A stretch of 64,000 nucleotides of DNA from a phage, in sequence record PQ724392.1; one strand, written 5' to 3'. Position 1 is the first letter of the stretch. Each line of letters begins with the position of its first letter. Both the position numbers and the translations under genes were made by a program. The notes under the pieces were generated by a model. That model saw nothing but the letters and a program-made list of their open reading frames with translations. It ran no database searches and was not told where the DNA came from. Shown one piece after another: positions 26,737-50,903 of this stretch.

Positions 26737-26833
26737 AATCTCTCACTTTTGATGTTATAAATATCATTATAAATTAGACCCACTATACTTTCTTTCTCTG
26801 AAAGGAATTAATAGTTGCAAAGGGTCTAGAACC

Positions 26834-26859
26834 ATTATACCGCATTTTTATTTGAAGCA
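26834..26859 (-). promoter_or_regulatory. MotA-type middle promoter upstream of rnlB
   Basis: On the - strand: TTTGCTTCA, 13 nt, TATAAT, then GGTTCTAGACCC, the same downstream block as the uvsY promoter. Confidence 0.5.
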
Positions 26860-26866
26860 AAAAGGG

Positions 26867-27130
26867 TCAGAATTTTACATACAGCATTGGCTTGGATTCT
26901 TGCCAATCATAATTCCAGGTAAAAGATGTAAATTTTTCTGCTCGCAGAAATTCAGATATCTTTGCGCGGTTTCCTTCTTCATACTCTTTTTCAGAAACTG
27001 CCATATTAACAGCATCTTTGCCGTTCTCGGCGGCGGCAATAGCCACTTTGCGAAATATAGAAATAAAGTCATTTGCAACTTTATCTTGTGACTCTTTGGC
27101 TATTTGACGTAGTTCTTCTGCGAATGTCAT
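26867..27130 (-). CDS. Hypothetical protein (87 aa)
   Basis: ORF in the rnlB-hoc interval, coupled to the upstream ORF (ATGA overlap). Confidence 0.4.
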   Translation of the reverse strand: MTFAEELRQIAKESQDKVANDFISIFRKVAIAAAENGKDAVNMAVSEKEYEEGNRAKISEFLRAEKFTSFTWNYDWQESKPMLYVKF

Positions 27131-27330
27131 TTCTTCACCTTTTTGTTATTCAAACGTTTACGATAAACAATCTTTTCTTTCGCTTTAAATTTAGCTTTGG
27201 CTTGTTCTACATCAACCCAGGCCTTTGCCATCTCTTTAGCAGTCCCGCCTAATACCTTGGCGATTTCAATAAATGTCATGCCAGATTCATGCAGAAAATG
27301 TACTTTAACCTTATCCATAATGATTCTCAT
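27127..27330 (-). CDS. Small basic protein (67 aa) with a putative helix-turn-helix
   Basis: Helix-turn-helix-like segment (MTFIEIAKVLGGTAKEMAKAW) followed by a K/R-rich tail. Confidence 0.4.
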   Translation of the reverse strand: MRIIMDKVKVHFLHESGMTFIEIAKVLGGTAKEMAKAWVDVEQAKAKFKAKEKIVYRKRLNNKKVKK

Positions 27331-27474
27331 GTTGAGTTAGTGAAGCTATCTTAACATGGAATTTTTAACTTGTAAACATGATTTTTATGCCAGATGGACC
27401 AATTGTATGGTATGGCCACAAAGACTTACCGGAGAAGGGGCCAGGCAACGTTTGCTCAGTACCATAAAAATAAA

Positions 27475-27495
27475 GGGACCCGAAGGTCCCTTTTT
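27475..27495. terminator. Terminator downstream of hoc
   Basis: GGGACCCGAAGGTCCC hairpin with a T-run on the + side and A-rich flank on the other. Confidence 0.6.
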
Positions 27496-27497
27496 AA

Positions 27498-28631
27498 TTA
27501 ATAAACGTAATCGTATATAATACCAGTTTCTAAAGCGGTGCGATGAATAACTCGACCATTACGAGATTCTTGTACATCAACCTCTGGATAGTCGGTAATC
27601 ATTTTTTGAAGTGTGTATCGGTGCAAATAATACGGGCTATCTGGGTCATCAGTTTTCCAGTCTTGCCCAGCAAGAGTCATTTTCTGAATTTCATCCATAA
27701 CCCACCAACCACACCAGATATAAGCTGAATTACGTACTGGCAATGGGTGAATATATGGTAATTCGCCATCTGGAACTGGTGCGACTTTAGCCGTGACTGT
27801 TACATTACCAGTTTTGGTAACGGTTACAGGGTTATAATCTGTAGCAGATACAACAACAGAAACTTCAATTAACTGGGAACCTTCGGCGCTTGTATCGATT
27901 GCCAAAGTATCCGTGGTGCCAACTACAGGAGAACCGTCTTTCTTCCAAGAATAGGCAAAAGTAGCACCAGCAGGCGCACCGGCTACAGTAGCTTTAAAAG
28001 AAGCCGGAGTTCCTTCAGGAACATTAATAGAGGTCGGTGCTAAAGTAACAGAAACACCCGACATAGTTTTCTTAACAAAAGTTACCGCAGCTCCTTTAGA
28101 TGCGGTGCCATTATTATAATCGGGTGCAGAAACAGTAACTTCACAGTTCAATGTATAATTTGCTTCTGCTGATTCGGTGACGGTAATAGTTTTATCAGTT
28201 TGACCTGCGATTACGCTAGTGTTACGTTTCCAAACGTAAGCGATTGTTGCACCAGAAGGAGCGCCTGTCACGTTAGCAGTAACAACTTGAGATTGCCCCA
28301 CTTCTTTAGTAACAGAGGCAGGGTCTAAAGTCAATGTAATAGCAGGCATTGTTTTATTCTGGATAGTTAAAGTTGTTTCGGCTTCAGCTGTTTCTGGTTC
28401 GCCGTCCGCTGGTGTAGTTGTTGCAACAACTTTAATAGTCTTACTGCCTGCTGGACCAACAGCAACATAATCCATTGCAGCAGTCACAGAAGATTGAGGA
28501 ACGCCATCAACGGTCCAGACAAATGATTCGGTACCTTCAACTGCAGCACCGGAACCGGTCGCAGTGAAATTGGTTGTTGCTCCAATAACGGCCGTAGCCG
28601 CCAAAGGAGCAATAGCTACGGTATAAGCCAT
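27498..28631 (-). CDS. hoc: Highly immunogenic outer capsid protein Hoc (Ig-like repeats)
   Basis: 377 aa (T4 376 aa); internally repeated Ig-like modules (e.g. V(T/A)GAPxGAT(I/F)AY.WK); position between rnlB and inh. Confidence 0.7.
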   Translation of the reverse strand: MAYTVAIAPLAATAVIGATTNFTATGSGAAVEGTESFVWTVDGVPQSSVTAAMDYVAVGPAGSKTIKVVATTTPADGEPETAEAETTLTIQNKTMPAITLTLDPASVTKEVGQSQVVTANVTGAPSGATIAYVWKRNTSVIAGQTDKTITVTESAEANYTLNCEVTVSAPDYNNGTASKGAAVTFVKKTMSGVSVTLAPTSINVPEGTPASFKATVAGAPAGATFAYSWKKDGSPVVGTTDTLAIDTSAEGSQLIEVSVVVSATDYNPVTVTKTGNVTVTAKVAPVPDGELPYIHPLPVRNSAYIWCGWWVMDEIQKMTLAGQDWKTDDPDSPYYLHRYTLQKMITDYPEVDVQESRNGRVIHRTALETGIIYDYVY

Positions 28632-28640
28632 AATAAACCC

Positions 28641-29306
28641 TTATTTTAAAGTGACAAAAGATGAGTTACGAGTTTCTCGTACTAGAACAGACCCATTACG
28701 ATTGATGTAATAAATCAAACTGAATAGGGTTTGATGCGCGGTGGGATGTGGGAAAGCAGTTGGACGTTCTTTCCAATCCGGAGTCTCGGCAATCCACTGA
28801 TAAATCCACCATGGAACAGTACAGAATCCAGGGTTCTTGCCAATAAGCATAAGATTTGGACTAAAGTTTTTTGGTAGAGCAAATACAGGTTTTTCAGATT
28901 CGATAACCTTAGCAACAGCTGCTTCGAACTTTTCTTCGATAAAAGGAACATCTTCTTCGACCAAAACAACTGGTTCTTCGATTTCAACAACTTCAACCTT
29001 TGCTTCGGTTGGAGCATCAAATAAGAGTTTAGCTTCTTCTTTAGCTGACTCATCGCCATCAAATTTAGCACCTGACAATTCATCGTCGGCATCGATAAGG
29101 TCAGTGATGCTCAGGCCTTCATTATCATCAGGCATAGGCATGTCAGCAAATGCTTTAAGTCCTGCTTCCAGGTCAGCCAACATATTATCAAAGGTTTTTG
29201 TTTTCTTAACATCAACGCCAAGTGATGCTGCGTATTCGGCTAATTTTTCTTTGGCTTCTTTTTTCTCGAGGACACGAATTTCCTCAATGTAGTTCTTGTC
29301 AATCAT
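28641..29306 (-). CDS. inh: Inhibitor of prohead protease (Inh)
   Basis: 221 aa (T4 226 aa); position between hoc and uvsW; acidic central region. Confidence 0.6.
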   Translation of the reverse strand: MIDKNYIEEIRVLEKKEAKEKLAEYAASLGVDVKKTKTFDNMLADLEAGLKAFADMPMPDDNEGLSITDLIDADDELSGAKFDGDESAKEEAKLLFDAPTEAKVEVVEIEEPVVLVEEDVPFIEEKFEAAVAKVIESEKPVFALPKNFSPNLMLIGKNPGFCTVPWWIYQWIAETPDWKERPTAFPHPTAHQTLFSLIYYINRNGSVLVRETRNSSFVTLK

Positions 29307-29324
29307 GATGAACCTCGGTTAGTG

Positions 29325-29332
29325 TATAAATA
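29325..29332 (+). promoter_or_regulatory. T4-type late promoter for uvsW
   Basis: Exact TATAAATA 29 nt upstream of the uvsW ATG at 29361. Confidence 0.6.
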
Positions 29333-29360
29333 TAGATATATTTATTACCTTGGAATCATC

Positions 29361-30860
29361 ATGGATATTAAAATCAACTTTCTAAATTTTAGTCACGTGC
29401 ATGTTGAATGTGAAGATGGAATCTTCTACGAACTCCGTGATTACTTCAGCTTCGAAGCTGAAAACTATCGCTTCAATCCAAAATTCAAGCAGGGAGTTTG
29501 GGACGGACGAATCCGCCTCCTGGATTACAATCGTAAATTACCATACGGTTTGGTTAATCAAATTAAAAAGTTCGCTGACCAGTTTGGCTATTCATTCTGG
29601 ATTGACCCACAAATCACAGAGAAAGAAGAAATCTCTCGCGAAGAATTCGACAAATGGGTCGAGTCAAAAGAAATCTATTCAGGCAATACTAAGATAACGC
29701 CCCATTGGTATCAATCTGACGCCGTATATGATGGTCTGGTCAACAGAAGAAAGATTCTGAACTTACCTACGTCTGCAGGTAAAAGTCTCATCCAGGCGCT
29801 TCTGGCGCGATATTATCTCGAGAACTATGAAGGCAAGGTGCTTATCCTTGTTCCTACAACCGCGCTTGTTGACCAGATGATTAATGACTTTGTTGATTAT
29901 CGTCTGTTCCCTCGTGAAGCTTGTCTGGGTATTCGTTCCGGGACTAAACGTGATTCTGATGCGATGATTTATGTATCGACTTATCAGACGGCTGTAAAAC
30001 AACCTAAAGAATGGTTTGAACAGTTTGGCCAGTTTATGAATGACGAATGTCACATGGCTACAGGTAAATCAATTTCGACGGTTATCGAAGGCCTTACGAA
30101 TTGCATGTTTAAATTTGGTTTGTCAGGCTCACTCCGTGACGGCAAAGCCAACCTTATGCAATATATGGGTCTGTTTGGTGATATCTTTAAACCGGTATCA
30201 ACATCTAAATTGATGGAAGATGGTCAGGTCACTGACCTTAAAATAAATAGTATTTTCCTTCGTTACCCTGATGAATTTACCGTTAAAATGAAAGGTAAAA
30301 CTTATCAGGATGAAATTAAGGTAATTACAAAAGCTACACGCCGAAATAAATGGGTAACAAATCTTGCTCTCAAGCTTGCTAAAAAAGATGAAAACGTCTT
30401 TTTGATGTTTAAGAATATCGAGCACGGTAAATCGATGTTTGAAATGCTTAAGGAAGCTGGTCATGAGAAAGTGTATTATGTTTCCGGGGAAGTTGATACC
30501 GAAACTCGTAATGCATTAAAGGTCATGGCAGAGAATGGAAAAGGAATTATTGTTGTAGCTTCATACGGTGTATTCTCGACGGGTATTTCCGTTAAAAACC
30601 TCCATCATATTATTTTCGCTCACCCGGTCAAATCAAAGGTAATTGTACTCCAGACAATTGGCCGCGTGCTTCGAAAACATGAATCCAAATCGACCGCAAA
30701 CGTGTGGGACATCGTGGATGATATGGGGGTCAAACCCAAATCAGCAAACGCTAAAAAGAAATATGTTCATATTAACTTTGCGCTTAAACATGCACTAGAA
30801 CGTATTCAACGGTATGCAGACGAAAAATTCAATTATGTAATTAAACAGGTGGAAATATAA
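29361..30860 (+). CDS. uvsW: UvsW DNA helicase (SF2, recombination/repair)
   Basis: Near-collinear match to T4 UvsW (MDIK..F..FSHV...E...F.ELRD.FSFEA..YRFNP...G.WDGRIRLLDYNR); the track ORF begins at GTG 29322, so the start is moved to the ATG at 29361; late promoter at 29325-29332. Confidence 0.9.
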   Translation: MDIKINFLNFSHVHVECEDGIFYELRDYFSFEAENYRFNPKFKQGVWDGRIRLLDYNRKLPYGLVNQIKKFADQFGYSFWIDPQITEKEEISREEFDKWVESKEIYSGNTKITPHWYQSDAVYDGLVNRRKILNLPTSAGKSLIQALLARYYLENYEGKVLILVPTTALVDQMINDFVDYRLFPREACLGIRSGTKRDSDAMIYVSTYQTAVKQPKEWFEQFGQFMNDECHMATGKSISTVIEGLTNCMFKFGLSGSLRDGKANLMQYMGLFGDIFKPVSTSKLMEDGQVTDLKINSIFLRYPDEFTVKMKGKTYQDEIKVITKATRRNKWVTNLALKLAKKDENVFLMFKNIEHGKSMFEMLKEAGHEKVYYVSGEVDTETRNALKVMAENGKGIIVVASYGVFSTGISVKNLHHIIFAHPVKSKVIVLQTIGRVLRKHESKSTANVWDIVDDMGVKPKSANAKKKYVHINFALKHALERIQRYADEKFNYVIKQVEI

Positions 30861-31087
30861 TGAAATCCTTTGAAGAAATTATGTACGAAGCATCAATTGA
30901 AGGCTTTATGGCTAAGATTGGTTCCTGCCAGACCATAGACGGTCTGAAGGAGTTGGAAAGCTATTATAAAAAACGCAGTAAAGAAGCTGAACTAAAAGAT
31001 TCCGATGATATCAGTGTTCGTGATGCTCTTGCCGGTAAACGCGCCGAGCTTGAGGATATGGACGATGATGAAGACGAAGATTTCTAA
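30860..31087 (+). CDS. uvsW.1: UvsW.1-like small protein with acidic C-terminal tail
   Basis: 75 aa, TAATG-coupled to uvsW; size and position match T4 UvsW.1; C-terminus DMDDDEDEDF. Confidence 0.65.
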   Translation: MKSFEEIMYEASIEGFMAKIGSCQTIDGLKELESYYKKRSKEAELKDSDDISVRDALAGKRAELEDMDDDEDEDF

Positions 31088-31094
31088 ATAAAAA

Positions 31095-31117
31095 GGCCCC
31101 AACCAAAAGGAAGGGGC
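31095..31117 (-). terminator. Terminator of the leftward uvsY operon, after uvsY.-2
   Basis: GCCCC...GGGGC stem; on the - strand it is followed by CTTTTTATTT. Confidence 0.5.
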
Positions 31118-31144
31118 AAAACCAAAAATGGTTAACAACACTAG

Positions 31145-31312
31145 CTAAATTAAAAGTTGGGTCTCGTTCAGTTGCTCTTCTGTATTTTCCGTAACTGGCA
31201 AACTCTGAACATAATTATAACAGGCGCCCGGATGCACCGGACCTTGGTCTGTATCCACAACCAATGCAGAATCGATTGGAGTTTTACAGACAACACAAAT
31301 CTTATCTGACAT
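31145..31312 (-). CDS. uvsY.-2: UvsY.-2-like small Cys-rich protein (55 aa), not in the ORF track because it is under 60 aa
   Basis: Manual translation gives MSDKICVVCKTPIDSALVVDTDQGPVHPGACYNYVQSLPVTENTEEQLNETQLLI; GAGGAGA Shine-Dalgarno; terminator downstream; matches the T4 UvsY.-2 pattern as recalled. Confidence 0.6.
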   Translation of the reverse strand: MSDKICVVCKTPIDSALVVDTDQGPVHPGACYNYVQSLPVTENTEEQLNETQLLI

Positions 31313-31451
31313 GATTGTCTCCTCAGTTAAACTTACATATCTATTTAGTGCTCTTCATAATAGCAGCACGAGCTTTCATCTCATTAACAATTTCAGTTAT
31401 TCGGTTTGCAGAGATAACCATCTCGTCGAGAATCTTACTAATATTTTTCAT

Positions 31452-31685
31452 TTAATTTTCCTTAAAGTATCTCATACCAGTATCTATCCCCATATTGTGA
31501 GAATAGAACGCATCATCGATGTATCCTGCAAATTTACCTTTAACATAGATAACATCTTCACCGCAGGGGTGGTCAGCGCAGATACGAATATCTGCACGAT
31601 TCAATTTCCATTCCTTCATCATATACTTAATTTCTTCTTCGAACTCTTCGTCTTGGTTAAACGCATCGTCGATAGAATATCGCAT
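31452..31685 (-). CDS. uvsY.-1: UvsY.-1-like protein (77 aa)
   Basis: Immediately downstream of uvsY with start/stop overlap; size and position match T4 uvsY.-1. Confidence 0.55.
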   Translation of the reverse strand: MRYSIDDAFNQDEEFEEEIKYMMKEWKLNRADIRICADHPCGEDVIYVKGKFAGYIDDAFYSHNMGIDTGMRYFKEN

Positions 31686-32119
31686 TATTTGCCTGCCTCG
31701 AATTGTCTTATTTCTAACATATGTTTAAGTGCGAAACTTCGCGACTTAACACCATCTAATGCAGCGCTACAGAAGTCCTGGAGTAGTGCCCAATACTGAA
31801 TTGAAGTATCAATCTTCAGTATGTTTGAATCTGCTGCCATGACTGTTTTCAATTCTGACTTCTCGTATACATCCATGCATACTTCTTCCCCAGGGTCACC
31901 TCTTCCCGTATAATGGTCTAGTCGTTTTTTCAGTGCAGTTTTCTTCTGAATCTCAAGACGCATTATTTCTTTCTTGCAGTTGGTATACAATCTCAACCAT
32001 TTGCTATGCAACAAAACGTTGTTTTGTGTTTCATATTGAAGTTGCGTACCATCAATTTTTAAATCTGCATCTAACTCATCCTGAAAGACTTCTAACTTAT
32101 ATTCAATCTCTGTTTTCAT
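31685..32119 (-). CDS. uvsY: UvsY recombination mediator protein
   Basis: C-terminal two-thirds collinear with T4 UvsY (...LQYE..NNV.L.SKWL......KKE.LR.E.QKK.ALK.RLD.Y.GRGD...); start moved to the internal ATG at 32119; MotA-type middle promoter upstream. Confidence 0.85.
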   Translation of the reverse strand: MKTEIEYKLEVFQDELDADLKIDGTQLQYETQNNVLLHSKWLRLYTNCKKEIMRLEIQKKTALKKRLDHYTGRGDPGEEVCMDVYEKSELKTVMAADSNILKIDTSIQYWALLQDFCSAALDGVKSRSFALKHMLEIRQFEAGK

Positions 32120-32147
32120 AATGTATCCAATGTAAGGGTCTAGAACC

Positions 32148-32172
32148 ATTATACAGCCATAAAATTAAAGCA
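32148..32172 (-). promoter_or_regulatory. MotA-dependent middle promoter for uvsY
   Basis: On the - strand: TAATGCTTTAA (MotA box TGCTTTA), 12 nt, TATAAT, then conserved GGTTCTAGACCC; about 30 nt upstream of the uvsY ATG. Confidence 0.6.
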
Positions 32173-32562
32173 TTAACCGTTTTGACTTAGCTGAATCCTG
32201 ATTTGTTCGAGGGTGTCAGGGTCATCAACAATGCTGAACTGAACCGTTACGATAATGGAGTTATCATCATACATAGGGACAACTGCAACCTGTAGATTGC
32301 TTATTCTTGGTTCGAAGTTCCGCACCGCGGAGACGATGTTGCGTTTAATGGTATCTGTAATTAACGGTGTGATATTCTCAAAAAGCTGATTACTTATATC
32401 ACATCCAAATTCAGGCATAAAAGGCCGTGACCCTTTTCTTGTGGTGATTATTCCCAGAAGACTGTTCTTAACAGACCTTGCACCAGTTACTTTAGCAACG
32501 TCTTTATCCCAACTTGTAGATAAGTCGGGAGATACATCGCTATACATTTTGTTTATATTCAT
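32173..32562 (-). CDS. 25: Baseplate wedge protein gp25
   Basis: 129 aa; collinear with T4 gp25 (..INK.YSD..P......W.KDV...LG.RS.KNSLLGIITTRKGSRPF.PEFGCD); TAAATG coupling with gp26. Confidence 0.85.
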   Translation of the reverse strand: MNINKMYSDVSPDLSTSWDKDVAKVTGARSVKNSLLGIITTRKGSRPFMPEFGCDISNQLFENITPLITDTIKRNIVSAVRNFEPRISNLQVAVVPMYDDNSIIVTVQFSIVDDPDTLEQIRIQLSQNG

Positions 32563-33186
32563 TTACATAAACTTAAAGAATTCTTTAAGCCCCTTAATTA
32601 CATGGACAGAATGCGCTCCGCACTCGCAAGAGATAGGAATAGCCATTTGGACCTGTGGCTTGAGAAGTTCTTCGGTTAGTGCATTTATATCATCGAGGGT
32701 AATTGCGTTGTATAGGTCCTCGATTTCGGCTTCATTTAAGTCATCAACAACGATGCGCTCGCCACCTTCCGTGATAATATATTCGATACAACAAGCAATC
32801 ATTTTACCTTTATCGCCGTCTTCAAACAACCCAGGATAACGGAATTTAATTTTAAATGCCCCGAAATCACGAATAACTTCAGACTCATCCACGATGCTTG
32901 CACGACTTATAGTCACAGGAATATCTTGTTCCTTTCCACATTCGCATACCCATGTATGTTCGACATTAACAACCCCAAGACTATTTGCCCAGAGATTAAT
33001 AAGAAGCAGCTCGGCTTCCTGTTTGTTTAACCCTTTAGCATCAGTGCATTTATTAAGCAGTTCAATTATTGCAGGTTCCATACGCTTTTCTAATTTTGCC
33101 TGAAGCAAATCTTTGTATTCGCGCAATGTAAAAGCCCTACAATTTATAGTTTTATTTTTAATTTGGACAATAAATTCATAAGTCAT
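32563..33186 (-). CDS. 26: Baseplate hub subunit gp26
   Basis: Track ORF begins at TTG 33219; the internal ATG at 33186 has an AAGGAG Shine-Dalgarno and gives 207 aa (T4 gp26 208 aa). Confidence 0.75.
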   Translation of the reverse strand: MTYEFIVQIKNKTINCRAFTLREYKDLLQAKLEKRMEPAIIELLNKCTDAKGLNKQEAELLLINLWANSLGVVNVEHTWVCECGKEQDIPVTISRASIVDESEVIRDFGAFKIKFRYPGLFEDGDKGKMIACCIEYIITEGGERIVVDDLNEAEIEDLYNAITLDDINALTEELLKPQVQMAIPISCECGAHSVHVIKGLKEFFKFM

Positions 33187-33203
33187 AATTTGCTCCTTTA
33201 CTG

Positions 33204-33215: not shown

Positions 33216-33239
33216 TCAATAAAGATAAAAGGGGATTCT

Positions 33240-37368: not shown

Positions 37369-37376
37369 GGAATAAT

Positions 37377-38471: not shown

Positions 38472-39430
38472 TGTTTACTTTACAAGAATTCCAAACGCAG
38501 GCGATTAATATCGACTTACAAAGGAATAACCTTTTTAGTGTGGTCTTCGCGACCACACCTTCCTCCAAATCTCAGAATCTTCTGGACCAGTTTGGCGGCG
38601 CATTATTCAGCAACCTTCCTGTTAACTCAGATTGGTTTGGTTTAACGCAAGGCGACTTAACTCAAGGGATAACAACTCTTGTTACTGCTGGGACACAAAA
38701 GCTTATTCGCAAATCAGGGATAAGCAAATATCTTATCGGGGCAATGAGTAACCGTGTTGTGCAATCATTATTGGGGGAATTCGAGGTTGGTACTTACCTG
38801 CTTGATTTCTTTAATATGGCCTATCCAACGGCTGGTCTATTGGTCCACTCTGTTAAGCTTCCGGATAACACGTTGAACTACGAAATGGACCTCAACCATA
38901 ACGCACCAAATATCAAGATAACAGGAAGAGAATATTCTCCATTGGTATTGAGCTTTAGAATGGATTCAGAGGCAGGGAACTACAGAGCATTTAACGATTG
39001 GGTTAACTCTGTGCAAGACCCAGTTACCCAGCTAAGGGCCTTGCCTGAAGACGTTGAAGCTGATATTCAGGTTAACCTTCACTCACGTAATGGATTGCCA
39101 CATACGGTTGTTATGCTAACTGGTTGTGTTCCTGTAAGTGTATCAGCGCCTGAATTGAGTTATGAAGGGGATAATCAGATAGCTACATTTGATGTTACTT
39201 TTGCTTATCGCGTTATGTCAACTGGTGCGGTGGGAAGAGCTGCTGCATTGGAATGGTTGGAAGATAAGGTCATTAAGGGTGTATCTGGTATTAGTTCAGA
39301 TAACAACTTGAACGCAGAAGTTGCCAAATTGAGTCGCTTGTCTGGTGCTCAATCTGGATTAACAAGTCTATACAATACGTTCACTGGTTCTGGGAGAACA
39401 ATCTCCGGTGGAAGTCAACGTATATTATAA
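38471..39430 (+). CDS. 54: Baseplate tail tube initiator gp54
   Basis: 319 aa (T4 320 aa); TAATG coupling with gp48; strong terminator follows. Confidence 0.8.
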   Translation: MFTLQEFQTQAINIDLQRNNLFSVVFATTPSSKSQNLLDQFGGALFSNLPVNSDWFGLTQGDLTQGITTLVTAGTQKLIRKSGISKYLIGAMSNRVVQSLLGEFEVGTYLLDFFNMAYPTAGLLVHSVKLPDNTLNYEMDLNHNAPNIKITGREYSPLVLSFRMDSEAGNYRAFNDWVNSVQDPVTQLRALPEDVEADIQVNLHSRNGLPHTVVMLTGCVPVSVSAPELSYEGDNQIATFDVTFAYRVMSTGAVGRAAALEWLEDKVIKGVSGISSDNNLNAEVAKLSRLSGAQSGLTSLYNTFTGSGRTISGGSQRIL

Positions 39431-39437
39431 AAAGAAA

Positions 39438-39459
39438 GGGACCCGAAGGTCCCTTTTTT
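39438..39459. terminator. Bidirectional terminator between gp54 and the convergent alt-downstream ORF
   Basis: GGGACCCGAAGGTCCC hairpin followed by TTTTTT, with an A-run upstream. Confidence 0.7.
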
Positions 39460-39748
39460 ATTTGCGGAATGAAATGAAACCTGCTGCAGTCATTACAGCT
39501 TCTTTCTTAGCAAAGACTGTAATTGCAATTGGCGCTTCAGATTCAAGCTGACCAGTTACTACACCATTAAAAATATTTTCTGTTTGTTCAGAATTTACAA
39601 AGTTCTCAACAGGGCGAAGGTCAAACTTCTTATCTTCACCAAATACACGGCGTAATTCATTACCCACTGCGCTGTCAAACTCTTCTGAAGCCGGGATAAC
39701 ATTCTCAACTACCAGTTCCTGACCGTTAAAGCGAAAAGATGATTTCAT
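39458..39748 (-). CDS. Hypothetical protein downstream of alt (96 aa)
   Basis: Internal ATG at 39748 has a GAGGAAA Shine-Dalgarno; position corresponds to the T4 alt.-1 region. Confidence 0.5.
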   Translation of the reverse strand: MKSSFRFNGQELVVENVIPASEEFDSAVGNELRRVFGEDKKFDLRPVENFVNSEQTENIFNGVVTGQLESEAPIAITVFAKKEAVMTAAGFISFRK

Positions 39749-41929: not shown

Positions 41930-41930
41930 G

Positions 41931-43463: not shown

Positions 43464-43473
43464 TAATCACCTC

Positions 43474-43752: not shown

Positions 43753-44576
43753 CAATTACCCCCTTGGCCACCGGTCGGTTGATTGTACCAGTATTCAATA
43801 CCAGTACCTACACGCTGGCCATATTGATATGGATATGCTGGATTATATCCAGGAGTCCACGGTTGACCAGGCTGCCAGCCTTGCTGCATTTGTTGTTGAA
43901 GGCGTCGAGTTTCACGAAACAGCTCTTCCAGTTTACGGAGTTCATCTGGAGTGAATTCTGGTTTGACCGGTTCATCTTTGTGTTTCAGTTTAAGCTGTCC
44001 AGCAACATCGTCCCAATTAAAAACTTTGGAAGCTGTTTTAGGAATAGCATCACGTTCGCCGCGGGCCATCCAATAAACCGGAACCTCAAGAATTTCACTC
44101 GCATGGTCGCAATGGTGTGCAAGGTCATCAATATAACAAATGACATTATATTTGTCTTTTGCCTTCTGAAACAAATCCTCTTTAGAGGCTGTATGACCAC
44201 ACATCATCACTTCTTTAAACGCCCCAGGGAACAAAGCATTCAGGTTGAATTGACGATTCAGGCGAGCATCAATAGAATCACCCAGGGCTGTAACAGCCAC
44301 AAAATCATATTGCTCTTTGAGGTTATTGATAACCCTTAATGCATCCGCATAAGGAGACAAATAGCGAATAAAGTCTGAACAGTTATATTTTTCAATTAAC
44401 TGCGCGCCTAACTCTTCATCACAATTGAAAAGTTTACCAGGGGTCACAAATTTTTCATCCTGAATCATCTTAAGGATATGTTCCAGGGGTAAATTATATT
44501 TTTGGGCGAAATAAGGTAAGCCAGACTGCCATGACAAACATACGCCATCAATATCTGTTAAAATAACGGGTTTCAT
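43752..44576 (-). CDS. HAD-superfamily hydrolase-like protein with Q/P/Y/G-rich low-complexity C-terminal tail
   Basis: N-terminal HAD motif I (VILTDIDGV) and a DD motif (YIDDLAHH); C-terminal ~50 aa rich in Q, P, G, Y, W; ATGA-coupled to the upstream NADAR-like gene. Confidence 0.55.
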   Translation of the reverse strand: MKPVILTDIDGVCLSWQSGLPYFAQKYNLPLEHILKMIQDEKFVTPGKLFNCDEELGAQLIEKYNCSDFIRYLSPYADALRVINNLKEQYDFVAVTALGDSIDARLNRQFNLNALFPGAFKEVMMCGHTASKEDLFQKAKDKYNVICYIDDLAHHCDHASEILEVPVYWMARGERDAIPKTASKVFNWDDVAGQLKLKHKDEPVKPEFTPDELRKLEELFRETRRLQQQMQQGWQPGQPWTPGYNPAYPYQYGQRVGTGIEYWYNQPTGGQGGN

Positions 44577-45031
44577 AATGCATCTCTCAATTGGTTAAGT
44601 ATGTCAATAAATTCTTGTTCAGTCAATATTGTATCATGAACAGTAAGGTGGCTCGCCATCGAATGCTTTAAAACTTTGCCTTTTGTGGATTGTAACGCGT
44701 CGCGAAACCCCCTGTTTTGGAGCGCTGCTTCAAAATATGCATTTGTATACAACTCTTTCCATGCTGCAGAGTATCTTGAAAAGGGAATTCCAAGCCAGAA
44801 AAGCGTCCCACGGTCCGCAGCTCTTGCATAAGCTCTTCCACTTTGCTGGGCGGCCAATCCGGACATCCCAAATATACGTTTTTGTTGTTCAACATTTCTC
44901 ACCTTGCACCCTTGTAGGAAGCCTTCAAGACCTCCAAACTGGATACCCTCCATAACAAAAGGCCATTTGGCAAAGTTACTTAATGCGCATGATGGCCACG
45001 GAAAATTGCTTCTTATTTCTAACTCAGACAT
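44573..45031 (-). CDS. NADAR/YbiA-like (DUF1768) domain protein, candidate ADP-ribose-processing hydrolase
   Basis: Motifs collinear with E. coli YbiA: LSNFAKWP (YbiA FSNFAAWP), GLEGFLQGCK (SEHYFQAQK), ...FRDALQSTKGKVLKHS (LRALLLATAPAKLVEH). Start placed at the internal ATG 45031 (8-nt overlap with the upstream ORF); an alternative start at 45106 would add a hydrophobic N-terminus. Confidence 0.55.
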   Translation of the reverse strand: MSELEIRSNFPWPSCALSNFAKWPFVMEGIQFGGLEGFLQGCKVRNVEQQKRIFGMSGLAAQQSGRAYARAADRGTLFWLGIPFSRYSAAWKELYTNAYFEAALQNRGFRDALQSTKGKVLKHSMASHLTVHDTILTEQEFIDILNQLRDAL

Positions 45032-45236
45032 CTTTGACACTGATAATATCCACATCAGCCCAATGACCATAACCAGGTAGACGGTCTTTAATAGATAATC
45101 CGCCATCAGATTTCAGCATTTTAATTGTTTTAGTATATGGTTCAATATTTCGGGCCCATGGACTTACATCAGTCACGCGATAAGTAACTTCGACCATTTC
45201 TGTTCCCAAAATTTTCTGAATCAGTTTCTTAAACAT
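45024..45236 (-). CDS. Hypothetical protein (70 aa)
   Basis: ORF in the coupled operon downstream of gp30. Confidence 0.4.
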   Translation of the reverse strand: MFKKLIQKILGTEMVEVTYRVTDVSPWARNIEPYTKTIKMLKSDGGLSIKDRLPGYGHWADVDIISVKDV

Positions 45237-45237
45237 A

Positions 45238-45432
45238 TTATCCTCGCTTTAAACATTTGATTACAGACAACTCACCACCCATGCGAACGTCTTCAGTTCC
45301 ATCAACCCACAAGACTGCATATGCTTCTTTAATTTGGGTATTGCCTAATTTAAACGCAGGCAGGACCTTTGAAATCATTCCAGGAATACCCACACCTTTT
45401 AACTGAACAGTTTGTGATAAGAATAATTTCAT
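45238..45432 (-). CDS. Hypothetical protein (64 aa)
   Basis: ORF with TAATG coupling to the upstream gene. Confidence 0.4.
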   Translation of the reverse strand: MKLFLSQTVQLKGVGIPGMISKVLPAFKLGNTQIKEAYAVLWVDGTEDVRMGGELSVIKCLKRG

Positions 45433-45719
45433 TAGAACCTCATCTGGAAACCGTGTGATTTAACATTACCGCCATTAATATCAGATGAATTAATTTCATG
45501 TGCTGCAATTGGGTCAATATCAATGTCGCGTCTAAGCTTGGTGATTGCCAGAGTATCGCGTCCATTAACAGTCCTGAATTCTAGTGGACAAACTACATCA
45601 ACATAGTTCTTAATGGAATCGCGTGTTGGTTCACGCCCAGCAGGAACATTAGGTCCTTTTTTAGAGAAAACAACTTCACAGAAATTTTTACGTGTATCAA
45701 AGTAAGTAGTCATAAACAT
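45432..45719 (-). CDS. Hypothetical protein (~95 aa)
   Basis: Internal ATG at 45719 is preceded by a GAGGAAAA Shine-Dalgarno and a GGGGCGAAAGCCCC hairpin; the track start at 45749 lies in the hairpin. Confidence 0.45.
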   Translation of the reverse strand: MFMTTYFDTRKNFCEVVFSKKGPNVPAGREPTRDSIKNYVDVVCPLEFRTVNGRDTLAITKLRRDIDIDPIAAHEINSSDINGGNVKSHGFQMRF

Positions 45720-45755
45720 AGTATTTTCCTCAAGGGGCTTTCGCCCCATTTAAGA

Positions 45756-46121
45756 TTAGATATCAAATTCATTAAGAACTACATCAAAGATTGCTTCCAG
45801 GTGTTCAGGTTTTGCTTTGTTGCTCAGGATGTGACGAATCCAAGTTTTAACCAGAAGCTTGCGATTAACACCATTCCAGCAAGGATGAGTCCCTAAATCA
45901 CGTTCACGGAAATCATCATCTAACGCGATTTTGAATACCGAACCTTCCATCGTGATTGAAAGAGTAATACCATTTTCAAATCGCATATAAACGTAGTTAG
46001 GGGTCATATATTGTTCAATTTCACACACTGAACCGTTTTGATGTTTCCACAAGCAAATAACTTCAGAAGAACCTGGGATGCAGTTAGAAACATATTTGCG
46101 TTCAAAGTTGATGTAGTTCAT
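45756..46121 (-). CDS. Hypothetical protein (121 aa)
   Basis: ORF preceded by ACTGGAGAATAAAATG leader and a hairpin/promoter-like element at 46150-46185. Confidence 0.45.
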   Translation of the reverse strand: MNYINFERKYVSNCIPGSSEVICLWKHQNGSVCEIEQYMTPNYVYMRFENGITLSITMEGSVFKIALDDDFRERDLGTHPCWNGVNRKLLVKTWIRHILSNKAKPEHLEAIFDVVLNEFDI

Positions 46122-46192
46122 TTTATTCTCCAGTTGTTTTCATTTGTTGGTACAGGTCTATAATATCATAACCTGTACCAAAGTAAACTGTT

Positions 46193-46561
46193 TTATGCGA
46201 CTTTACTCCAATTATCTAAATTTAATTCACCCTTAGCTTTCATTTTTTCAATCAGAAGGTCTGCAGTGGTGCGACCATTTTGATACCATGTAACATCTTC
46301 AGAATAACCAGTTTCTTCATCTTCATAGGTCTTACAACAAATCTTACCCAAAATCAAAGTTTTCAGTTCGTAGGTATCACCAGTAAAAAAGTTTGTTACC
46401 ATAATTTTCCAAGAGAAGTCATCAGAAGGACCTTCAGGAGTCATGCAACCAACAAATTCAAACTGTTCTTTATACAAGTGCCATTGCATCTCTTTAGTTT
46501 CAATGGCTTTGTAACCGTCGTGGTCTTTACCTTTGATGTATGAGTTAAGATTGATTTTCAT
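46193..46561 (-). CDS. Hypothetical protein (122 aa); cargo of a PeSL-like early-promoter cassette
   Basis: Preceded by TGTACA-N17-CATAAT and the conserved leader ...CCATACTGAGTTACACAATAAAACACTGGAGCATAAAATG. Confidence 0.5.
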   Translation of the reverse strand: MKINLNSYIKGKDHDGYKAIETKEMQWHLYKEQFEFVGCMTPEGPSDDFSWKIMVTNFFTGDTYELKTLILGKICCKTYEDEETGYSEDVTWYQNGRTTADLLIEKMKAKGELNLDNWSKVA

Positions 46562-46602
46562 TTTATGCTCCAGTGTTTTATTGTGTAACTCAGTATGGAA
46601 TC

Positions 46603-46631
46603 ATTATGCACTGGTCAAATCCTGTTGTACA
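46603..46631 (-). promoter_or_regulatory. PeSL-like early promoter upstream of ORF 46193-46561
   Basis: On the - strand: TGTACA-N17-CATAAT plus the conserved leader; a terminator lies immediately upstream. Confidence 0.55.
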
Positions 46632-46643
46632 CCCTTTTATGAA

Positions 46644-46670
46644 AATAAAAAAGGGACTCCGAAGAGTCCC
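46644..46670 (-). terminator. Terminator after the 53-aa ORF, upstream of a PeSL promoter
   Basis: GGGACTC-CGAA-GAGTCCC hairpin with a T-run on the - strand. Confidence 0.6.
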
Positions 46671-46675
46671 TGAAC

Positions 46676-46837
46676 TTATGCTTTCGGCTTACCAAAGCAA
46701 GCTGCATCGGCGCGCAATACCGCACGAGCACGAGCCTGAAGTTTATCAGTCACCTGATTGATTCGCTTGTTGGACGCACGCTTGTAACCAGCGCGTTTGG
46801 AGGAGCCATCAACAACTTTAACTTCTTTCTTAGCCAT
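46676..46837 (-). CDS. Small basic protein (53 aa), manually found
   Basis: Manual translation gives MAKKEVKVVDGSSKRAGYKRASNKRINQVTDKLQARARAVLRADAACFGKPKA; followed by a rho-independent terminator on the - strand; not in the ORF track (under 60 aa). Confidence 0.35.
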   Translation of the reverse strand: MAKKEVKVVDGSSKRAGYKRASNKRINQVTDKLQARARAVLRADAACFGKPKA

Positions 46838-47234
46838 ATTAAATTCTCTTTAAAAATAGAATGCAGGACTTATTGGCATTGCCTGCGCAAGCCCTCGAAG
46901 GGAACATTAGGTTTCGGATATTTAACGACAGGATAACCATAAACCTCGTCATCATACCTTATAGCTCTTATCTGTTGCACACCGTTAGCTTAAAGGTTCC
47001 GGGTTCGATTTCTCGAGGATAAGATATATACTGATGGATATATAGGCCTTGAGGCGTACTCCCGATTGGCCATCACCTCGGGGTAGCATGCACTTGCCGC
47101 TATAAGAATAACATTCAAGAGGTACACCGTAAAACTGCCGGGTCTTAAAACTATAATGATTCGCAAATCATTAATCAGACGGTTCGACGGCTCCTCGATT
47201 TTAGCTCACACTAAGGCAGTGAATCTCCAATAAA

Positions 47235-47489
47235 TTACTTCAGGGTTACGACAAAATGACGAACCGCTTTACGGGCAGCAGATGCCAGCGGCTTAGCAAA
47301 TTTCAGTTCATCTTTTGCTTCGAGCACTGCGCGAAGGTCGGTTTGAACCGGGTTAAGATGTTTGAAATACTGCAGAATTTCCAGTGCTTCGGCTTCAACA
47401 TCAATAGATGCGCCGTAGTTTTCGTGACCGTTATTCCATGCAGTGCGTTGCAGTTCAAGAGCGTGTTGTAATTGTTTGTTTAAAGACAT
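47235..47489 (-). CDS. rIII: rIII lysis inhibition accessory protein
   Basis: Start moved to the internal ATG (MSLNKQLQHALELQRTAWNNGHENYGASIDVEAEALEIL...), closely matching T4 rIII over 84 aa. Confidence 0.8.
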   Translation of the reverse strand: MSLNKQLQHALELQRTAWNNGHENYGASIDVEAEALEILQYFKHLNPVQTDLRAVLEAKDELKFAKPLASAARKAVRHFVVTLK

Positions 47490-47660
47490 TTTAGAAGCCT
47501 CAATACGAGGTGAATATTTGGTGGACACGTTCTTCTGAATTTCACTTCCTTTCGGCAAGTCTCTCAGTTGTAGTCCACCGTTTAGGATTGGCTAACCCCA
47601 TACACCAGCAAAGCTCTGTATGACATCAACCAATCCATATTATTATTTATAACGCTAATT

Positions 47661-48008
47661 TTACTTATAAAGACAAGGAACAGCTTTATAATGACAGGTC
47701 ACAAATTTCTGCTTAACTTCTTTAGCCTGCTTAAGTCCCAGTGCAACCAGAGGATGTGGAACGTTTGCAATCTTGCCAACCGGAAGAGGAGTCAAATCAC
47801 CTACTTCGCAGAATCCTTCAGGAACATCCGGACCAACCGAAAATACTTCACACATCTCCGGGATTTCACCCTGATGGAGTTTTCCGATAACGATACCTGA
47901 TGCCGTAGTTTCTTCATCACCAGCTTGCTTTGGCTCAGAAACCAAAATAATATATTCACCTACTGCTTTAATTGGTAATTCCATATTTAATCCATGTTGT
48001 TTGGTCAT
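47661..48008 (-). CDS. 31: Co-chaperonin gp31 (GroES-like, required for gp23 folding)
   Basis: Collinear with T4 gp31 (LPI.AVGEY.ILVSEP.QAGDEE...[20 protein letters not shown]...[29 protein letters not shown]); the start could instead be the internal ATG at 47984. Confidence 0.85.
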
Positions 48009-48039
48009 GTATTAATAATAGCATGCATTGTTTGAAGCA

Positions 48040-48339
48040 TTAAAGAACGAGCAGAGTCTCGGTCTGCAGTCCATTCACGGAAATCAATTTATTGAAACAG
48101 AATGAACGCCATTCATTAAGCTTGGTATCAAATACCCGGATATAGCTAACTGGTTCTTTATTGACTTCTGGCCCAGGGGCCTGGATTTCTTTATACGGAA
48201 GCAGGTCCAGGTCGCGAGTACAAGTCATACGACGGATACTACCATCTGCTTTTTCAAACAGAACTTCGTGAAAGCCAACAGACAAAATAGTCTTGACTTT
48301 TTCACGGAGGCGAATTGTTTCTTGTTCAGTTAAAATCAT
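48040..48339 (-). CDS. Hypothetical protein (99 aa)
   Basis: ORF between gp31 and cd; position corresponds to the T4 31.1 region. Confidence 0.45.
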   Translation of the reverse strand: MILTEQETIRLREKVKTILSVGFHEVLFEKADGSIRRMTCTRDLDLLPYKEIQAPGPEVNKEPVSYIRVFDTKLNEWRSFCFNKLISVNGLQTETLLVL

Positions 48340-48341
48340 AA

Positions 48342-48575
48342 TTATTCCAAAACAGTTTTAATAGTGGTTGCATTACGCTCTTTTAAAGCGCTCAGCAGGG
48401 ATTTGCATTTTTCAAAAACCGGGTCCGTTTTATACCGGATGCTTTCGTCAATCCATTCAGATTTATAGTAAGACTTCCAGCGAGAGAAGAAATACTTTTT
48501 GTATTCCACCGAAAAAGCGATTATACCCGTCCCCCGAGGACTAAGACTGGTTATTTTAACCATACGAAATTTCAT
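48342..48575 (-). CDS. Hypothetical protein (77 aa)
   Basis: ORF; position corresponds to the T4 31.2 region; stop/start coupling with cd. Confidence 0.4.
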   Translation of the reverse strand: MKFRMVKITSLSPRGTGIIAFSVEYKKYFFSRWKSYYKSEWIDESIRYKTDPVFEKCKSLLSALKERNATTIKTVLE

Positions 48576-49156
48576 TATTCACCACAAAATTCGTTAATGT
48601 TTTCCCAGTTCAATTTGTCTAAACTACGCTTAGGCACATTGAACACCTCAATTCCTGCATTCTTCAGGATATCATCCCAACCAGGAATATTCTTGTCATA
48701 CGTTTCGCAGTAAACCAATTTCTTGATTCCCGATTGAGAAATTGCCTTTGCGCAATCAGGACAAGGGGAAAGCGTCACATACATAGTAGCGCCTTCAATT
48801 GACGAACCCATTCTTGCTGCAAACAGAATTGCATTAAGCTCAGCATGGATTTCGTTGTTCTTTGACCATGCAGAATGGGCTTCGCGATGGGCTTTCGCCA
48901 ATACAAAACGGTCAACCTTACTGAATCTCACACATTCTGGCTTGTGACCGGGGACGAGAACAGGTTTAGGTTTATTCAGTAACCAACCTTGCTCTTCCGC
49001 ATGCTCGCAACAGTTGACCCCACCTGCAGGGGAACCATTATACCCTGTAGAAATAATGCGCCCATTCTTTTCAATAACAGCTCCCACTTTCCAGGAGCAA
49101 CATTTGGATTCTTGAGATACAAGGTATGCGATTTGCAGAACAGTAGTTGGTTTCAT
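48575..49156 (-). CDS. cd: dCMP deaminase
   Basis: 193 aa; near-identical over long stretches to T4 Cd (SKCCSWKVGAVIEKNGRIISTGYNGSPAGGVNCC...HAELNAILFAAR...TLSPCPDCAKAI). Confidence 0.9.
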   Translation of the reverse strand: MKPTTVLQIAYLVSQESKCCSWKVGAVIEKNGRIISTGYNGSPAGGVNCCEHAEEQGWLLNKPKPVLVPGHKPECVRFSKVDRFVLAKAHREAHSAWSKNNEIHAELNAILFAARMGSSIEGATMYVTLSPCPDCAKAISQSGIKKLVYCETYDKNIPGWDDILKNAGIEVFNVPKRSLDKLNWENINEFCGE

Positions 49157-49492
49157 TTACATCACCACGAGATAATTGGTTTTAATAGTTTCAACACGAT
49201 ATAATTCATGTCGCAATTTAGTAATGCTCTTAACATGTGTTGTAATTATACTATCACCGTCGCTGAAGCGTTTTTTCTTATCGTCAAAAATCACCCCAAA
49301 CATTCGCTCACCAATTTCTACAGGAGCTTCTGTGATAACAACCGCATCATAATTACTTGGGTGAATACTTTTAAACAGAGCATCATTCGCAAGCGTTACT
49401 TTGATAAATGCAGTTGTTTCTGGGTCCAACTTACGATGGTCACCTAAATCATTTTTAAGTGATTCTTTGAAAATATCCATTAAATTCATCAT
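49157..49492 (-). CDS. Hypothetical protein (111 aa)
   Basis: ORF immediately upstream of cd; ATGA-type coupling. Confidence 0.45.
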   Translation of the reverse strand: MMNLMDIFKESLKNDLGDHRKLDPETTAFIKVTLANDALFKSIHPSNYDAVVITEAPVEIGERMFGVIFDDKKKRFSDGDSIITTHVKSITKLRHELYRVETIKTNYLVVM

Positions 49493-49734
49493 TGAATATA
49501 CACTCGCTGCGCTTCAACCAGACCATCAGAACCCAATTTCAGTTGGGTAAACTGGTCACCACCTTTTAGAGTAATTTTCGGATTAATGACAATCATAAAA
49601 CTGCGTGCAGATTCCTGAATAACTTGCAAAGTCGCAGCAGGGAATCGCTGTGATACGCGGTTAATCATCTCTTGAGCAAATTCCTTCACTTTTTCGTGAA
49701 ACTCTTCAACAGTAATTGGGGTTTCGCTAAGCAT
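49489..49734 (-). CDS. Hypothetical protein (81 aa)
   Basis: ORF with coupled stop/start. Confidence 0.4.
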   Translation of the reverse strand: MLSETPITVEEFHEKVKEFAQEMINRVSQRFPAATLQVIQESARSFMIVINPKITLKGGDQFTQLKLGSDGLVEAQRVYIQ

Positions 49735-50276
49735 CAGATTGCCTCCTGTTTAACTTGTTTAACGATAGAAACTTTTGTGATATCACCTTTGATAATATAG
49801 CAATCTTCTGCAGTACCACGGTTTAACAGGCGTTCTGCTTCGTCTTCCGCATATTCTTTTGACACATGACGAGAGTTAATCTCAATCTTGCCATTTTTAA
49901 CCACAAGCAATTTCCAAACTGATGCAAGTTTTACTGGCACAGGTTCAACTTCTGGCTTAACACCAACTTCCGCCTGGATGAAATATTTGAATTCATCTGA
50001 TAATGGACCAACAGAAACAAACATTGCCCCACGATGCCTGTTCTGCTCGTCAGATATTTTTACCAAATCCACAAAATCATTTTCATCAATCAGACGAATC
50101 TCACAAACTTTTTTACCGCCGCTAACATTATCAGGTAAAATCTTAACTTCAAACGGAGTCATACCGATGTATCCAGCAATTTGGTAATTAGATGCCCATC
50201 CACCAGAGACAAACTGTTTTTTGGCATTTTCAGATACAAATTTGTAAAACTTACCTTCTTCAAAGAAATCGCTCAT
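49734..50276 (-). CDS. Hypothetical protein (180 aa)
   Basis: ORF with ATG start; no recognizable motif. Confidence 0.45.
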   Translation of the reverse strand: MSDFFEEGKFYKFVSENAKKQFVSGGWASNYQIAGYIGMTPFEVKILPDNVSGGKKVCEIRLIDENDFVDLVKISDEQNRHRGAMFVSVGPLSDEFKYFIQAEVGVKPEVEPVPVKLASVWKLLVVKNGKIEINSRHVSKEYAEDEAERLLNRGTAEDCYIIKGDITKVSIVKQVKQEAI

Positions 50277-50336
50277 TTTGTTTTCCTCATGTGTTGATGA
50301 AATTCATTATACACCATCCATGGTGAAAGTAAACAC

Positions 50337-50615
50337 TTAAATTGCTTCGACAACTACCGTTTGTTTCTGGAAGTCCATTTTGCATGAAATAGCCAAAATG
50401 TGGTTATCAATTTTAAATGGAACAATTGCAAATGCTGCACCAGGCGTGAGTTGAACAGTGATTGCATCAACTGCATCCGGGAACATGATTTCCAGAATAG
50501 CAGACAAACGACCGTGCACTTTTAGTTCAGTCGACACGTCGACGCTTTCGTATAGATAATCAGATACAATCTGACTAAAAAGTACTTTAACAATTTCAGA
50601 ATATGTAGGAAACAT
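50337..50615 (-). CDS. Hypothetical protein (92 aa)
   Basis: ORF preceded by a MotA-type middle-promoter-like element at 50663-50687. Confidence 0.4.
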   Translation of the reverse strand: MFPTYSEIVKVLFSQIVSDYLYESVDVSTELKVHGRLSAILEIMFPDAVDAITVQLTPGAAFAIVPFKIDNHILAISCKMDFQKQTVVVEAI

Positions 50616-50662
50616 TTCTTTTCTCGCTTAGTTATTGGGGCTATCCAAAGGACCTAGACCCC

Positions 50663-50687
50663 ATTATACCATAAAATTTTTAAAGCG
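50663..50687 (-). promoter_or_regulatory. MotA-type middle promoter-like element upstream of ORF 50337-50615
   Basis: On the - strand: AACGCTTTA, 12 nt, TATAAT, then GGGGTCTAGGTCC. Confidence 0.4.
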
Positions 50688-50903
50688 TTAATGGACGGTA
50701 TGCACCTTGACATTAACGATAAATCGGTCAATGACTTCAGTCAGCGGAACGAATTCAACATAATATTCGCCCTTGTACCGTTCGTTGATGTCATTACGCA
50801 GTGCAGCCAGGTTATTGATAAGAGCAGGAGACATATTCTGACCTACCAGTTTCTGAAGCTCTTTATAAGCTTCTTCTTCAACTTCATGGTGTTTGTTATA
50901 CAT
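50688..50903 (-). CDS. Hypothetical protein (~71 aa)
   Basis: Start moved to the internal ATG at 50903, which overlaps the upstream ORF stop (ATGTATAA). Confidence 0.35.
   Translation of the reverse strand: MYNKHHEVEEEAYKELQKLVGQNMSPALINNLAALRNDINERYKGEYYVEFVPLTEVIDRFIVNVKVHTVH

Follow-up and report, generated by a model that had tools for sequence, protein, structure and literature searches.

A conserved block past the -10 hexamer marks a subclass of MotA-type middle promoters in T4-like phages

Why do some middle promoters of a T4-type coliphage resemble one another not only in the MotA box and the -10 hexamer but also across the predicted transcription start? The question is raised by a 64,000-nucleotide (nt) stretch of phage DNA (record PQ724392.1; the whole stretch is called the window here), whose initial annotation described four MotA-type promoters with a common block of sequence after TATAAT and proposed for it a shared leader function or a common mobile origin. 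The T4 middle-promoter consensus, (a/t)(a/t)(a/t)TGCTTtA, a spacing of 12+/-1 bp and TAtaaT, ends at the -10 (PMC2988021, PMC1524935), whereas the block extends from -6 to about +6 to +10, numbered from mapped T4 starts. The reading that we favour, at a probability of roughly 45%, is that the block is an extended downstream promoter element, one that sets apart a conserved subclass among the MotA/AsiA-dependent middle promoters of T4-like phages. The window belongs to Gaprivervirus, a VR7/SP18-like group of T4-type coliphages; its 26-33 kb stretch is 95-98% identical to the Gaprivervirus genomes TH40, UPEC07, ECML-359, SP18 and VR20, and its gene order is T4-like (gp6 through gp18, gp19, gp23, gp24, rnlB, hoc, uvsW, uvsY, gp25, alt, gene 30, cd, pseT, nrdA). 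Genes motA and asiA, both outside the window, are annotated in ECML-359, a 98% identical relative.

All four sites lie on the minus strand and carry a MotA-type box, (T/C)GCTT, and a perfect TATAAT, separated by a 12-13 nt spacer:

26819-26862, minus strand: middle promoter upstream of rnlB; MotA box 26862-26853, -10 TATAAT 26839-26834, block GGTTCTAGACC 26833-26823, then CTTT
32134-32175, minus strand: uvsY promoter; MotA box 32175-32166, -10 32153-32148, block 32147-32137
50647-50690, minus strand: promoter of a cd.3-like open reading frame (ORF; 50615-50337); MotA box 50690-50681, -10 50668-50663, variant block GGGGTCTAGGTCC 50662-50650
16661-16712, minus strand: orphan antisense promoter in the gp18/gp19 intergenic region; MotA-like box 16700-16691, -10 16677-16672, partial block GGTTCTACGGT 16671-16661

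The boxes read tttTGCTTCA (rnlB), taaTGCTTTA (uvsY), taaCGCTTTA (50668) and ttaTGCTTTT (16677), and all four agree with the MotA-box definition and with the spacing of 12+/-1 bp to a sigma70 -10 (TAnnnT); CGCTT-type boxes are also present among mapped T4 promoters. The rnlB and uvsY sites have the same sequence from -10 to +8, and the exact 17-mer TATAATGGTTCTAGACC has two minus-strand copies in the window, one ahead of rnlB (26823-26839) and one ahead of uvsY (32137-32153), where 0.15 matches with up to three mismatches would be expected by chance. The predicted rnlB start is A 26827, with a leader of ~91 nt to the ATG at 26736, and the predicted uvsY start is A 32141, with the ATG at 32119; the uvsY site, between gp25 and uvsY, is syntenic with T4 PuvsY/oriF. 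The near-identity reported for all four promoters past the -10 is thus exact at these two sites and holds in variant form at 50668, where GGGGTCTAGGTCC is the block plus one additional G and two substitutions (likely start A 50655; a CAATAAC motif lies at 50637-50631), but at the 18/19 site only GGTTCTA is in common, followed by CGGTTTC. The predicted start of that promoter, A 16665, is 39 nt past the gp18 stop codon. It had been taken for a reversed copy; it lies on the minus strand like the others and is antisense to its late-gene neighbours, gp18 and gp19.

We note several features of the flanks. The gp25 stop codon (32173-32175) overlaps the first bases of the uvsY-site MotA box, and the stop of the ORF ending at 50688 (about 50688-50690) overlaps the start of the box at the 50668 site, with no intergenic space upstream in either case. 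The GACCCTT of the block recurs upstream of the rnlB promoter (26861-26868 compared with 26819-26826, 8/8 bases), and GACCCTGACA is found 83 nt upstream at the uvsY site (32214-32223 compared with 32131-32140, 9/10 bases). A perfect 10-nt inverted repeat, CCGTAGAACC / GGTTCTACGG (16662-16671 and 16703-16712), surrounds the core of the 18/19 promoter; its 31-nt loop contains, on the plus strand, the late-promoter motif TATAAATA at 16684-16691, and another TATAAATA stands at 16771-16778, upstream of gene 19.

The block is far more frequent than chance and is tied to MotA promoters. The window contains five copies of TATAATGGTT compared with 0.26 expected, a number reached in 0 of 100 shuffles; two of these five fall within coding DNA and lack both a MotA box and the remainder of the block. 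The pattern TATAAT followed by G[GA]NT[CT]T[AG] always has GCT[TA] at the MotA-box position (4/4 in the window, 9/9 in ECML-359 and 5/5 in T4), so that the block pattern after a perfect TATAAT comes with a correctly placed MotA box in 18 of 18 cases over the three sequences. The converse does not hold: of some 11 plausible MotA-type promoters that the window contains, 4 carry the block, as do about 8 promoters per Gaprivervirus genome and 4-5 promoters of T4 compared with 58 published middle promoters, whose discriminator is mostly A/T-rich and among which the block occurs in only a handful. The block is therefore the mark of a subclass and not of middle promoters generally, as the title of the initial annotation had implied; absence from most MotA-box promoters, which that annotation had named as grounds against its proposal, is what was found.

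A genome-wide survey used the assembled complete ECML-359 and T4 genomes together with weight-matrix scans, and IMG/VR was searched for the exact 17-mer. In ECML-359, the exact 11-mer GGTTCTAGACC has three copies, each immediately after TATAAT; the third is on the plus strand between genes 3 and 2 and antisense to both. Weight-matrix scans of this genome recovered four more, diverged copies, namely the cd.3-like and 18/19 sites and two others:

11 nt past the modA stop codon of ECML-359, plus strand: diverged copy from the weight-matrix scan
downstream of nrdC.8 in ECML-359: diverged copy from the weight-matrix scan

Within the block, the ECML-359 copies agree at a mean pairwise identity of 0.69, which falls to 0.35 in the spacer and to 0.33-0.35 past +7; neither spacers nor flanks are related to one another, and the leaders diverge past about +10. 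In IMG/VR, TATAATGGTTCTAGACC was found in Gaprivervirus genomes only (three per genome), apart from four unrelated contexts consistent with chance.

T4 itself encodes the same class of promoter:

T4 PuvsY (oriF), minus strand: TATAATGAATCTAAGTCC after the spacer
T4 PnrdC.7, minus strand: TATAATGGTTCTAAGCCC after the spacer
T4 srd/modA promoter, -10 at 11885, plus strand: TATAATGAATCTAAGTCC after the spacer
T4 gene 3/2 promoter, -10 at 75988, plus strand: TATAATGGGTCTAAGTCCC after the spacer

Experiments have mapped PuvsY and PnrdC.7 as middle promoters (PMC2988021), and their published starts (115371 and 53325) are the A of TCTA, 7 nt past the -10. The two plus-strand promoters, just past the modA stop codon and between genes 3 and 2, are MotA-type, antisense to their neighbours and missing from the list of 58 published middle promoters (PMC2988021); both have Gaprivervirus counterparts, and the gene 3/2 promoter is found in many other genera as well. 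P34i (oriG) has a weak block, TATAATGGTCCCAGAGAG. Matrices built on either side find the other: one made solely from Gaprivervirus places PnrdC.7, the gene 3/2 antisense promoter, P34i, PuvsY and the modA antisense promoter all within the top 6 in T4, and one made solely from T4 copies recovers every Gaprivervirus copy, with the cd.3-like promoter as its top match in ECML-359. T4 has no block promoter at 18/19 and none at rnlB. An orthologous middle promoter on the minus strand at T4 46440 (PnrdD) and ECML-359 40164 half-matches the block (TATAATGAATCTGACACC) and may be a diverged class member.

Conservation extends across genera. Across some 25 distinct contigs of T4-like phages, the prevailing uvsY promoter sequence is TATAAT-GG(T/G)T(C/T)T(A)-(A/G)G-N-(T)CC-(C/T)TT, and the block is absent from three distant uvsY contigs with no recognisable MotA box. 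The six bases after the -10 carry 1.0-1.3 bits of information per position and the following eight carry 0.6-0.9, compared with 0.46 in the spacer and 0.4-0.5 farther downstream. The gene 3/2 antisense promoter, just past the gene 2 stop, is conserved with a like block in many genera; the 18/19 antisense promoter is found in JS98-like and Mosig-like contigs; and the rnlB promoter occurs in Dhakavirus (JS98: GGGTCTAGGTCCTTCC) and in further groups and is, at the rnlB loci compared, absent from T4-like and Karamvirus genomes. From these alignments, the block appears to behave as a selected promoter element rather than as a piece of a recently copied segment. A common mobile origin in the form of a recent insertion fits poorly with the identity of 0.35 in spacers and flanks against 0.69 in the block, and with the block promoters of other genera at the three of the four window loci surveyed there (uvsY, rnlB and 18/19).

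Two further sequence features accompany these loci. A hairpin just past the gene 2 stop, in the gene 3/2 intergenic region, is preserved via compensating changes, with arms CTTCCATTC/GAATGGAAG in T4 and TTCTTCCGGA/TCCGGAAGAA in Karamvirus, and at one gene 3/2 locus a hairpin stem, CCCGGCCAGT/ACTGGCCGGG, surrounds the -10 and the block. CAATAAC (or CAATCAATAAC) recurs about +14 to +27 past several block promoters at different loci: in the window at 50631-50637, in the T4 uvsY leader (twice), in the ECML-359 gene 3/2 antisense leader and in the Moonvirus uvsY and gene 3/2 leaders.

As an extended promoter element, the block would complete a fixed order of parts: MotA box, 12-13 nt unconstrained spacer, perfect TATAAT, G-G/A-N-T-Y-T and A(+1)-R-G-N-C-C-Y-T-T. 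Sigma70 region 1.2 reads the discriminator and favours a G immediately after the -10, the core recognition element spans -4 to +2 and includes a G at +2, TATAATGGGA-type downstream elements permit transcription without -35 contact, and the lambda PR discriminator is GGTTGC. The -6 to +2 half would be read on the non-template strand of the open complex. Since AsiA remodels sigma region 4, the -35 contact would be lost, so discriminator and core contacts should matter most at such promoters, and the additional contacts would make the open complex very stable and fix the start at the +1 A. The C/T-rich stretch from +3 to about +10 would be the initial transcribed sequence and could tune promoter escape or the extreme 5' end of the RNA. 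Promoter copies within a genome are probably kept alike by short-patch recombination among them, which would explain the exact 17-mers in the window. With the start at A, the GGTTCT-A-G of the rnlB and uvsY sites puts G at -6, -5 and +2, matching the discriminator and core recognition preferences; the 18/19 site has C at +2 (GGTTCT-A-C) and so matches at -6 and -5 only, and the additional G at 50668 lengthens the discriminator by one base. G is found at +2 in most lineages; T4 has A there, and its variants deviate from the G pattern at -5 or +2.

Early promoters of the same phage provide a comparison. Early sigma70 promoter families, recovered with a repeat finder, read GT(G/T)TACA-N17-(C/T)ATAAT-G(A/G)T(T/C)CC-A-T, and among 29 early promoters of ECML-359 the first base after the -10 is G in 24 and the seventh is A in 21. 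Those located in the window are:

-10 hexamers starting at 23081, 46608, 54380, 62426 and 63835, and also at 52834, 50311 and 39785, minus strand: early sigma70-type promoters

Early promoters, although they do not use MotA, thus share G-R-T-Y-C-Y-A, the half of the block from -6 to +1, which fits a polymerase-contact role. The initial argument that generic promoter needs would not conserve the start region is only half right: polymerase contacts positions -6 to +2, and the first half of the block is promoter-like.

Four points weigh against an extended promoter element. Known polymerase contacts stop at +2 and leave the conservation from +3 to +10 unexplained. T4 and Gaprivervirus share the E. 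coli polymerase yet differ in variant (TCTAAGTCC and TCTAGACC, respectively). T4 early promoters show no such post -10 consensus, a tentative contrast because the regular expression caught only 11-14 of them; part of the similarity would then be lineage-specific and not dictated by polymerase, with lineage-level homogenization also involved. Finally, a co-evolving factor would explain lineage variants within genomes equally well.

These variants are what survives of the case for a common origin or function: block promoters far apart in one genome tend toward one variant, which points to homogenization or to a co-evolving factor. Gaprivervirus has TCTAGACC, T4 has TCTAAGTCC, Karamvirus has GGTTTTGAGTTC at uvsY and gene 3/2 alike, and one metagenome pair has GGTTTTAGGTC; Moonvirus-like genomes break the pattern, with different variants at their two promoters. 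Between uvsY and gene 3/2 promoters the edit distance is 5.4 within genomes and 6.3 between them (permutation p ~0.02, on 9 non-independent genomes), a weakly significant signal of concerted evolution that is suggestive of either recombination between copies or a co-evolving factor. Such a factor, a phage-encoded protein or RNA with the block as its recognition site, would co-regulate the promoters with their own timing or shut-off, and its target would be the duplex near +1, the open-complex non-template strand or the transcript 5' end (AGACCC, AAGUCC or AGGUCC). We consider it unlikely. In its favour, promoters tens of kb apart share lineage variants (the exact 17-mer three times per Gaprivervirus genome, TATAATGAATCTAAGTCC at T4 uvsY and modA antisense, and TATAATGGTTTTGAGTTC at Karamvirus uvsY and gene 3/2 antisense), conservation to +10 passes the known polymerase contacts, and the block is near-palindromic around CTAG in Gaprivervirus and Dhakavirus. 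However, this symmetry is not conserved, with T4 TCTAAGTCC and Karamvirus TTTTGAGTTC non-palindromic (a dimeric operator was rejected on this ground), the Moonvirus-like genomes carry unlike variants at two promoters, recombination between copies also yields similarity within a genome, and no candidate factor is known, none having been searched for.

Recombination could also account for the similarity without any function of the block, as a by-product of spreading promoter cassettes like the PeSL/PmSL terminator-promoter cassettes; we find this improbable. Early families D2-D4 are highly homogeneous in a PeSL-like manner, with similarity continuing through the leader, ribosome-binding site and ATG, the presence of a block promoter at a given locus varies among genera, the core of the 18/19 promoter is flanked by the block in inverted form, and GACCCTT is repeated upstream of the rnlB and uvsY promoters, repeats that may be due to chance or be traces of earlier recombination between block copies. 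Spacers and flanks, however, are not common to the copies, which excludes recent copying of whole cassettes; orthologous block promoters persist across genera amid diverged surroundings, which argues for selection on the block itself; and the upstream stem-loop that defines PeSL is missing.

A shared structured RNA leader controlling stability or translation, in line with the leader function first proposed, is highly improbable and largely refuted. The 5' AGACCC of the rnlB leader in the window can pair with GGGUCU ~50 nt downstream, but relatives of the VR7/VR26 type have lost this pairing. Because transcription is predicted to start within the block, half of the block is left untranscribed; leaders diverge after about +10; several members are antisense and have no downstream ORF; no common fold was predicted among 16 folded leaders; and Rfam had no match anywhere in the window. 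Other candidates were tried and rejected. A resemblance to the transfer RNA T-arm (GGTTCNANNCC) allows only a 2-bp stem and has the start site within the motif. Promoters that direct capping with nicotinamide adenine dinucleotide prefer purines at -2 and -1, and the block has C and T there. A sigma-dependent pause or an overlap with late promoters would need a -10-like or TATAAATA motif, and the block contains neither. Separately, near-identical GC-rich hairpins (GGGACCCGAAGGTCCC, then a T run) are repeated at gene ends (3025-3050, 22727-22752, 27464-27499, 39427-39462 and 63869-63904) and look like intrinsic terminators.

The uvsY site and the antisense members raise a different possibility, that the block marks promoters of R-loop replication-primer transcripts of the T4 oriF/oriG type and helps either to hold nascent RNA on the template or to process the primer. 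R-loops are usually favoured by G-rich RNA; the RNA from block promoters, however, is C-rich and G-poor, and the first 40 nt downstream of T4 block promoters are no richer in A+T than those of other T4 middle promoters (mean 0.68 in both), which gives no support to an unwinding element. The uvsY site has a middle-mode promoter and is the syntenic counterpart of PuvsY, and PuvsY and P34i, the sole T4 promoters known to drive plasmid origins (PMC3016281, PMC2988021), are both in the top 6 block-like sites of T4. Several conserved antisense members (gene 3/2, 18/19 and P34i) lie in late-gene clusters with no gene to serve, and early T4 DNA synthesis reportedly begins mostly in late-gene regions (PMC3016281). 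On the other side, P34i matches only 7/12 nt past the -10, the other T4 block promoters stand 3-6 kb away from oriA and oriE as annotated and from rI.-1, the marker gene of oriC, origin-plasmid work reportedly isolated oriF and oriG only, and R-loop formation at oriF reportedly needs no specific downstream sequence (PMC3016281). Taken together, a role in R-loop priming seems unlikely. A broader version, in our view a little more doubtful still, makes the block the signature of dedicated primer or non-coding middle promoters (PuvsY/oriF, P34i/oriG, gene 3/2, 18/19 and modA antisense) that would commit their RNA to a role at the DNA level, either R-loop priming or sliding-clamp loading for late transcription. 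If true, this promoter class would provide an origin motif of the kind whose existence the T4 literature denies: according to a review, T4 origins have no common local motif and their downstream sequence is non-specific (PMC3016281).

Sigma appropriation has its textbook example in T4 middle promoters, and an element from -6 to +10 would add a determinant to the model, whether for open-complex stability, escape or regulation. The block also points to conserved T4 antisense promoters (-10 at 11885 and 75988, plus strand) that the published list lacks, and a class that includes the oriF promoter and resembles that of oriG offers a testable handle on why only some middle promoters serve as origins. 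Full-text literature searches with block sequences, with key older papers outside their reach, found nothing relevant, and within the literature that could be searched neither the subclass nor the pair of T4 antisense promoters appears to have been described.

Four known systems bear comparison with an extended promoter element. The sigma region 1.2 discriminator and core recognition element correspond in the G-G after TATAAT, the 6-nt discriminator, the +1 A and, mostly, the +2 G; they end at +2, whereas the block continues to about +10, and T4 has A at -5 or +2. T4 oriF and oriG consist of a middle promoter plus a downstream unwinding element and are primed by R-loops; the uvsY site is syntenic with oriF, and P34i is, like sites described here, an antisense non-coding MotA promoter within a late gene, but the DNA downstream of block promoters is not unusually A+T-rich. 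PeSL/PmSL cassettes, including the Mot-box PmSL, are likewise dispersed and unusually alike promoter copies in T4-like genomes, with a stem-loop just upstream, a 3' ribosome-binding site and start codon, and neighbouring variable ORFs in hyperplastic regions as the hallmarks of PeSL (PMC4122927), and recombination between copies would explain homogenization within a lineage. The additional conserved part lies here downstream of the -10, and no upstream stem-loop was found at the four sites: coding sequence or a stop codon abuts or overlaps the MotA box at rnlB, uvsY and 50668, and the 18/19 repeat encloses the core. The 18/19, gene 3/2 and modA copies are, moreover, antisense with no ORF, and the uvsY and 18/19 loci are in conserved core regions. 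The last are the T4 MotA/AsiA middle promoters themselves, whose MotA box, spacing and sigma70 -10 are all present at the window sites; what sets the subclass apart is that its TATAAT is perfect, its discriminator G-rich and its sequence conserved from +1 to +10.

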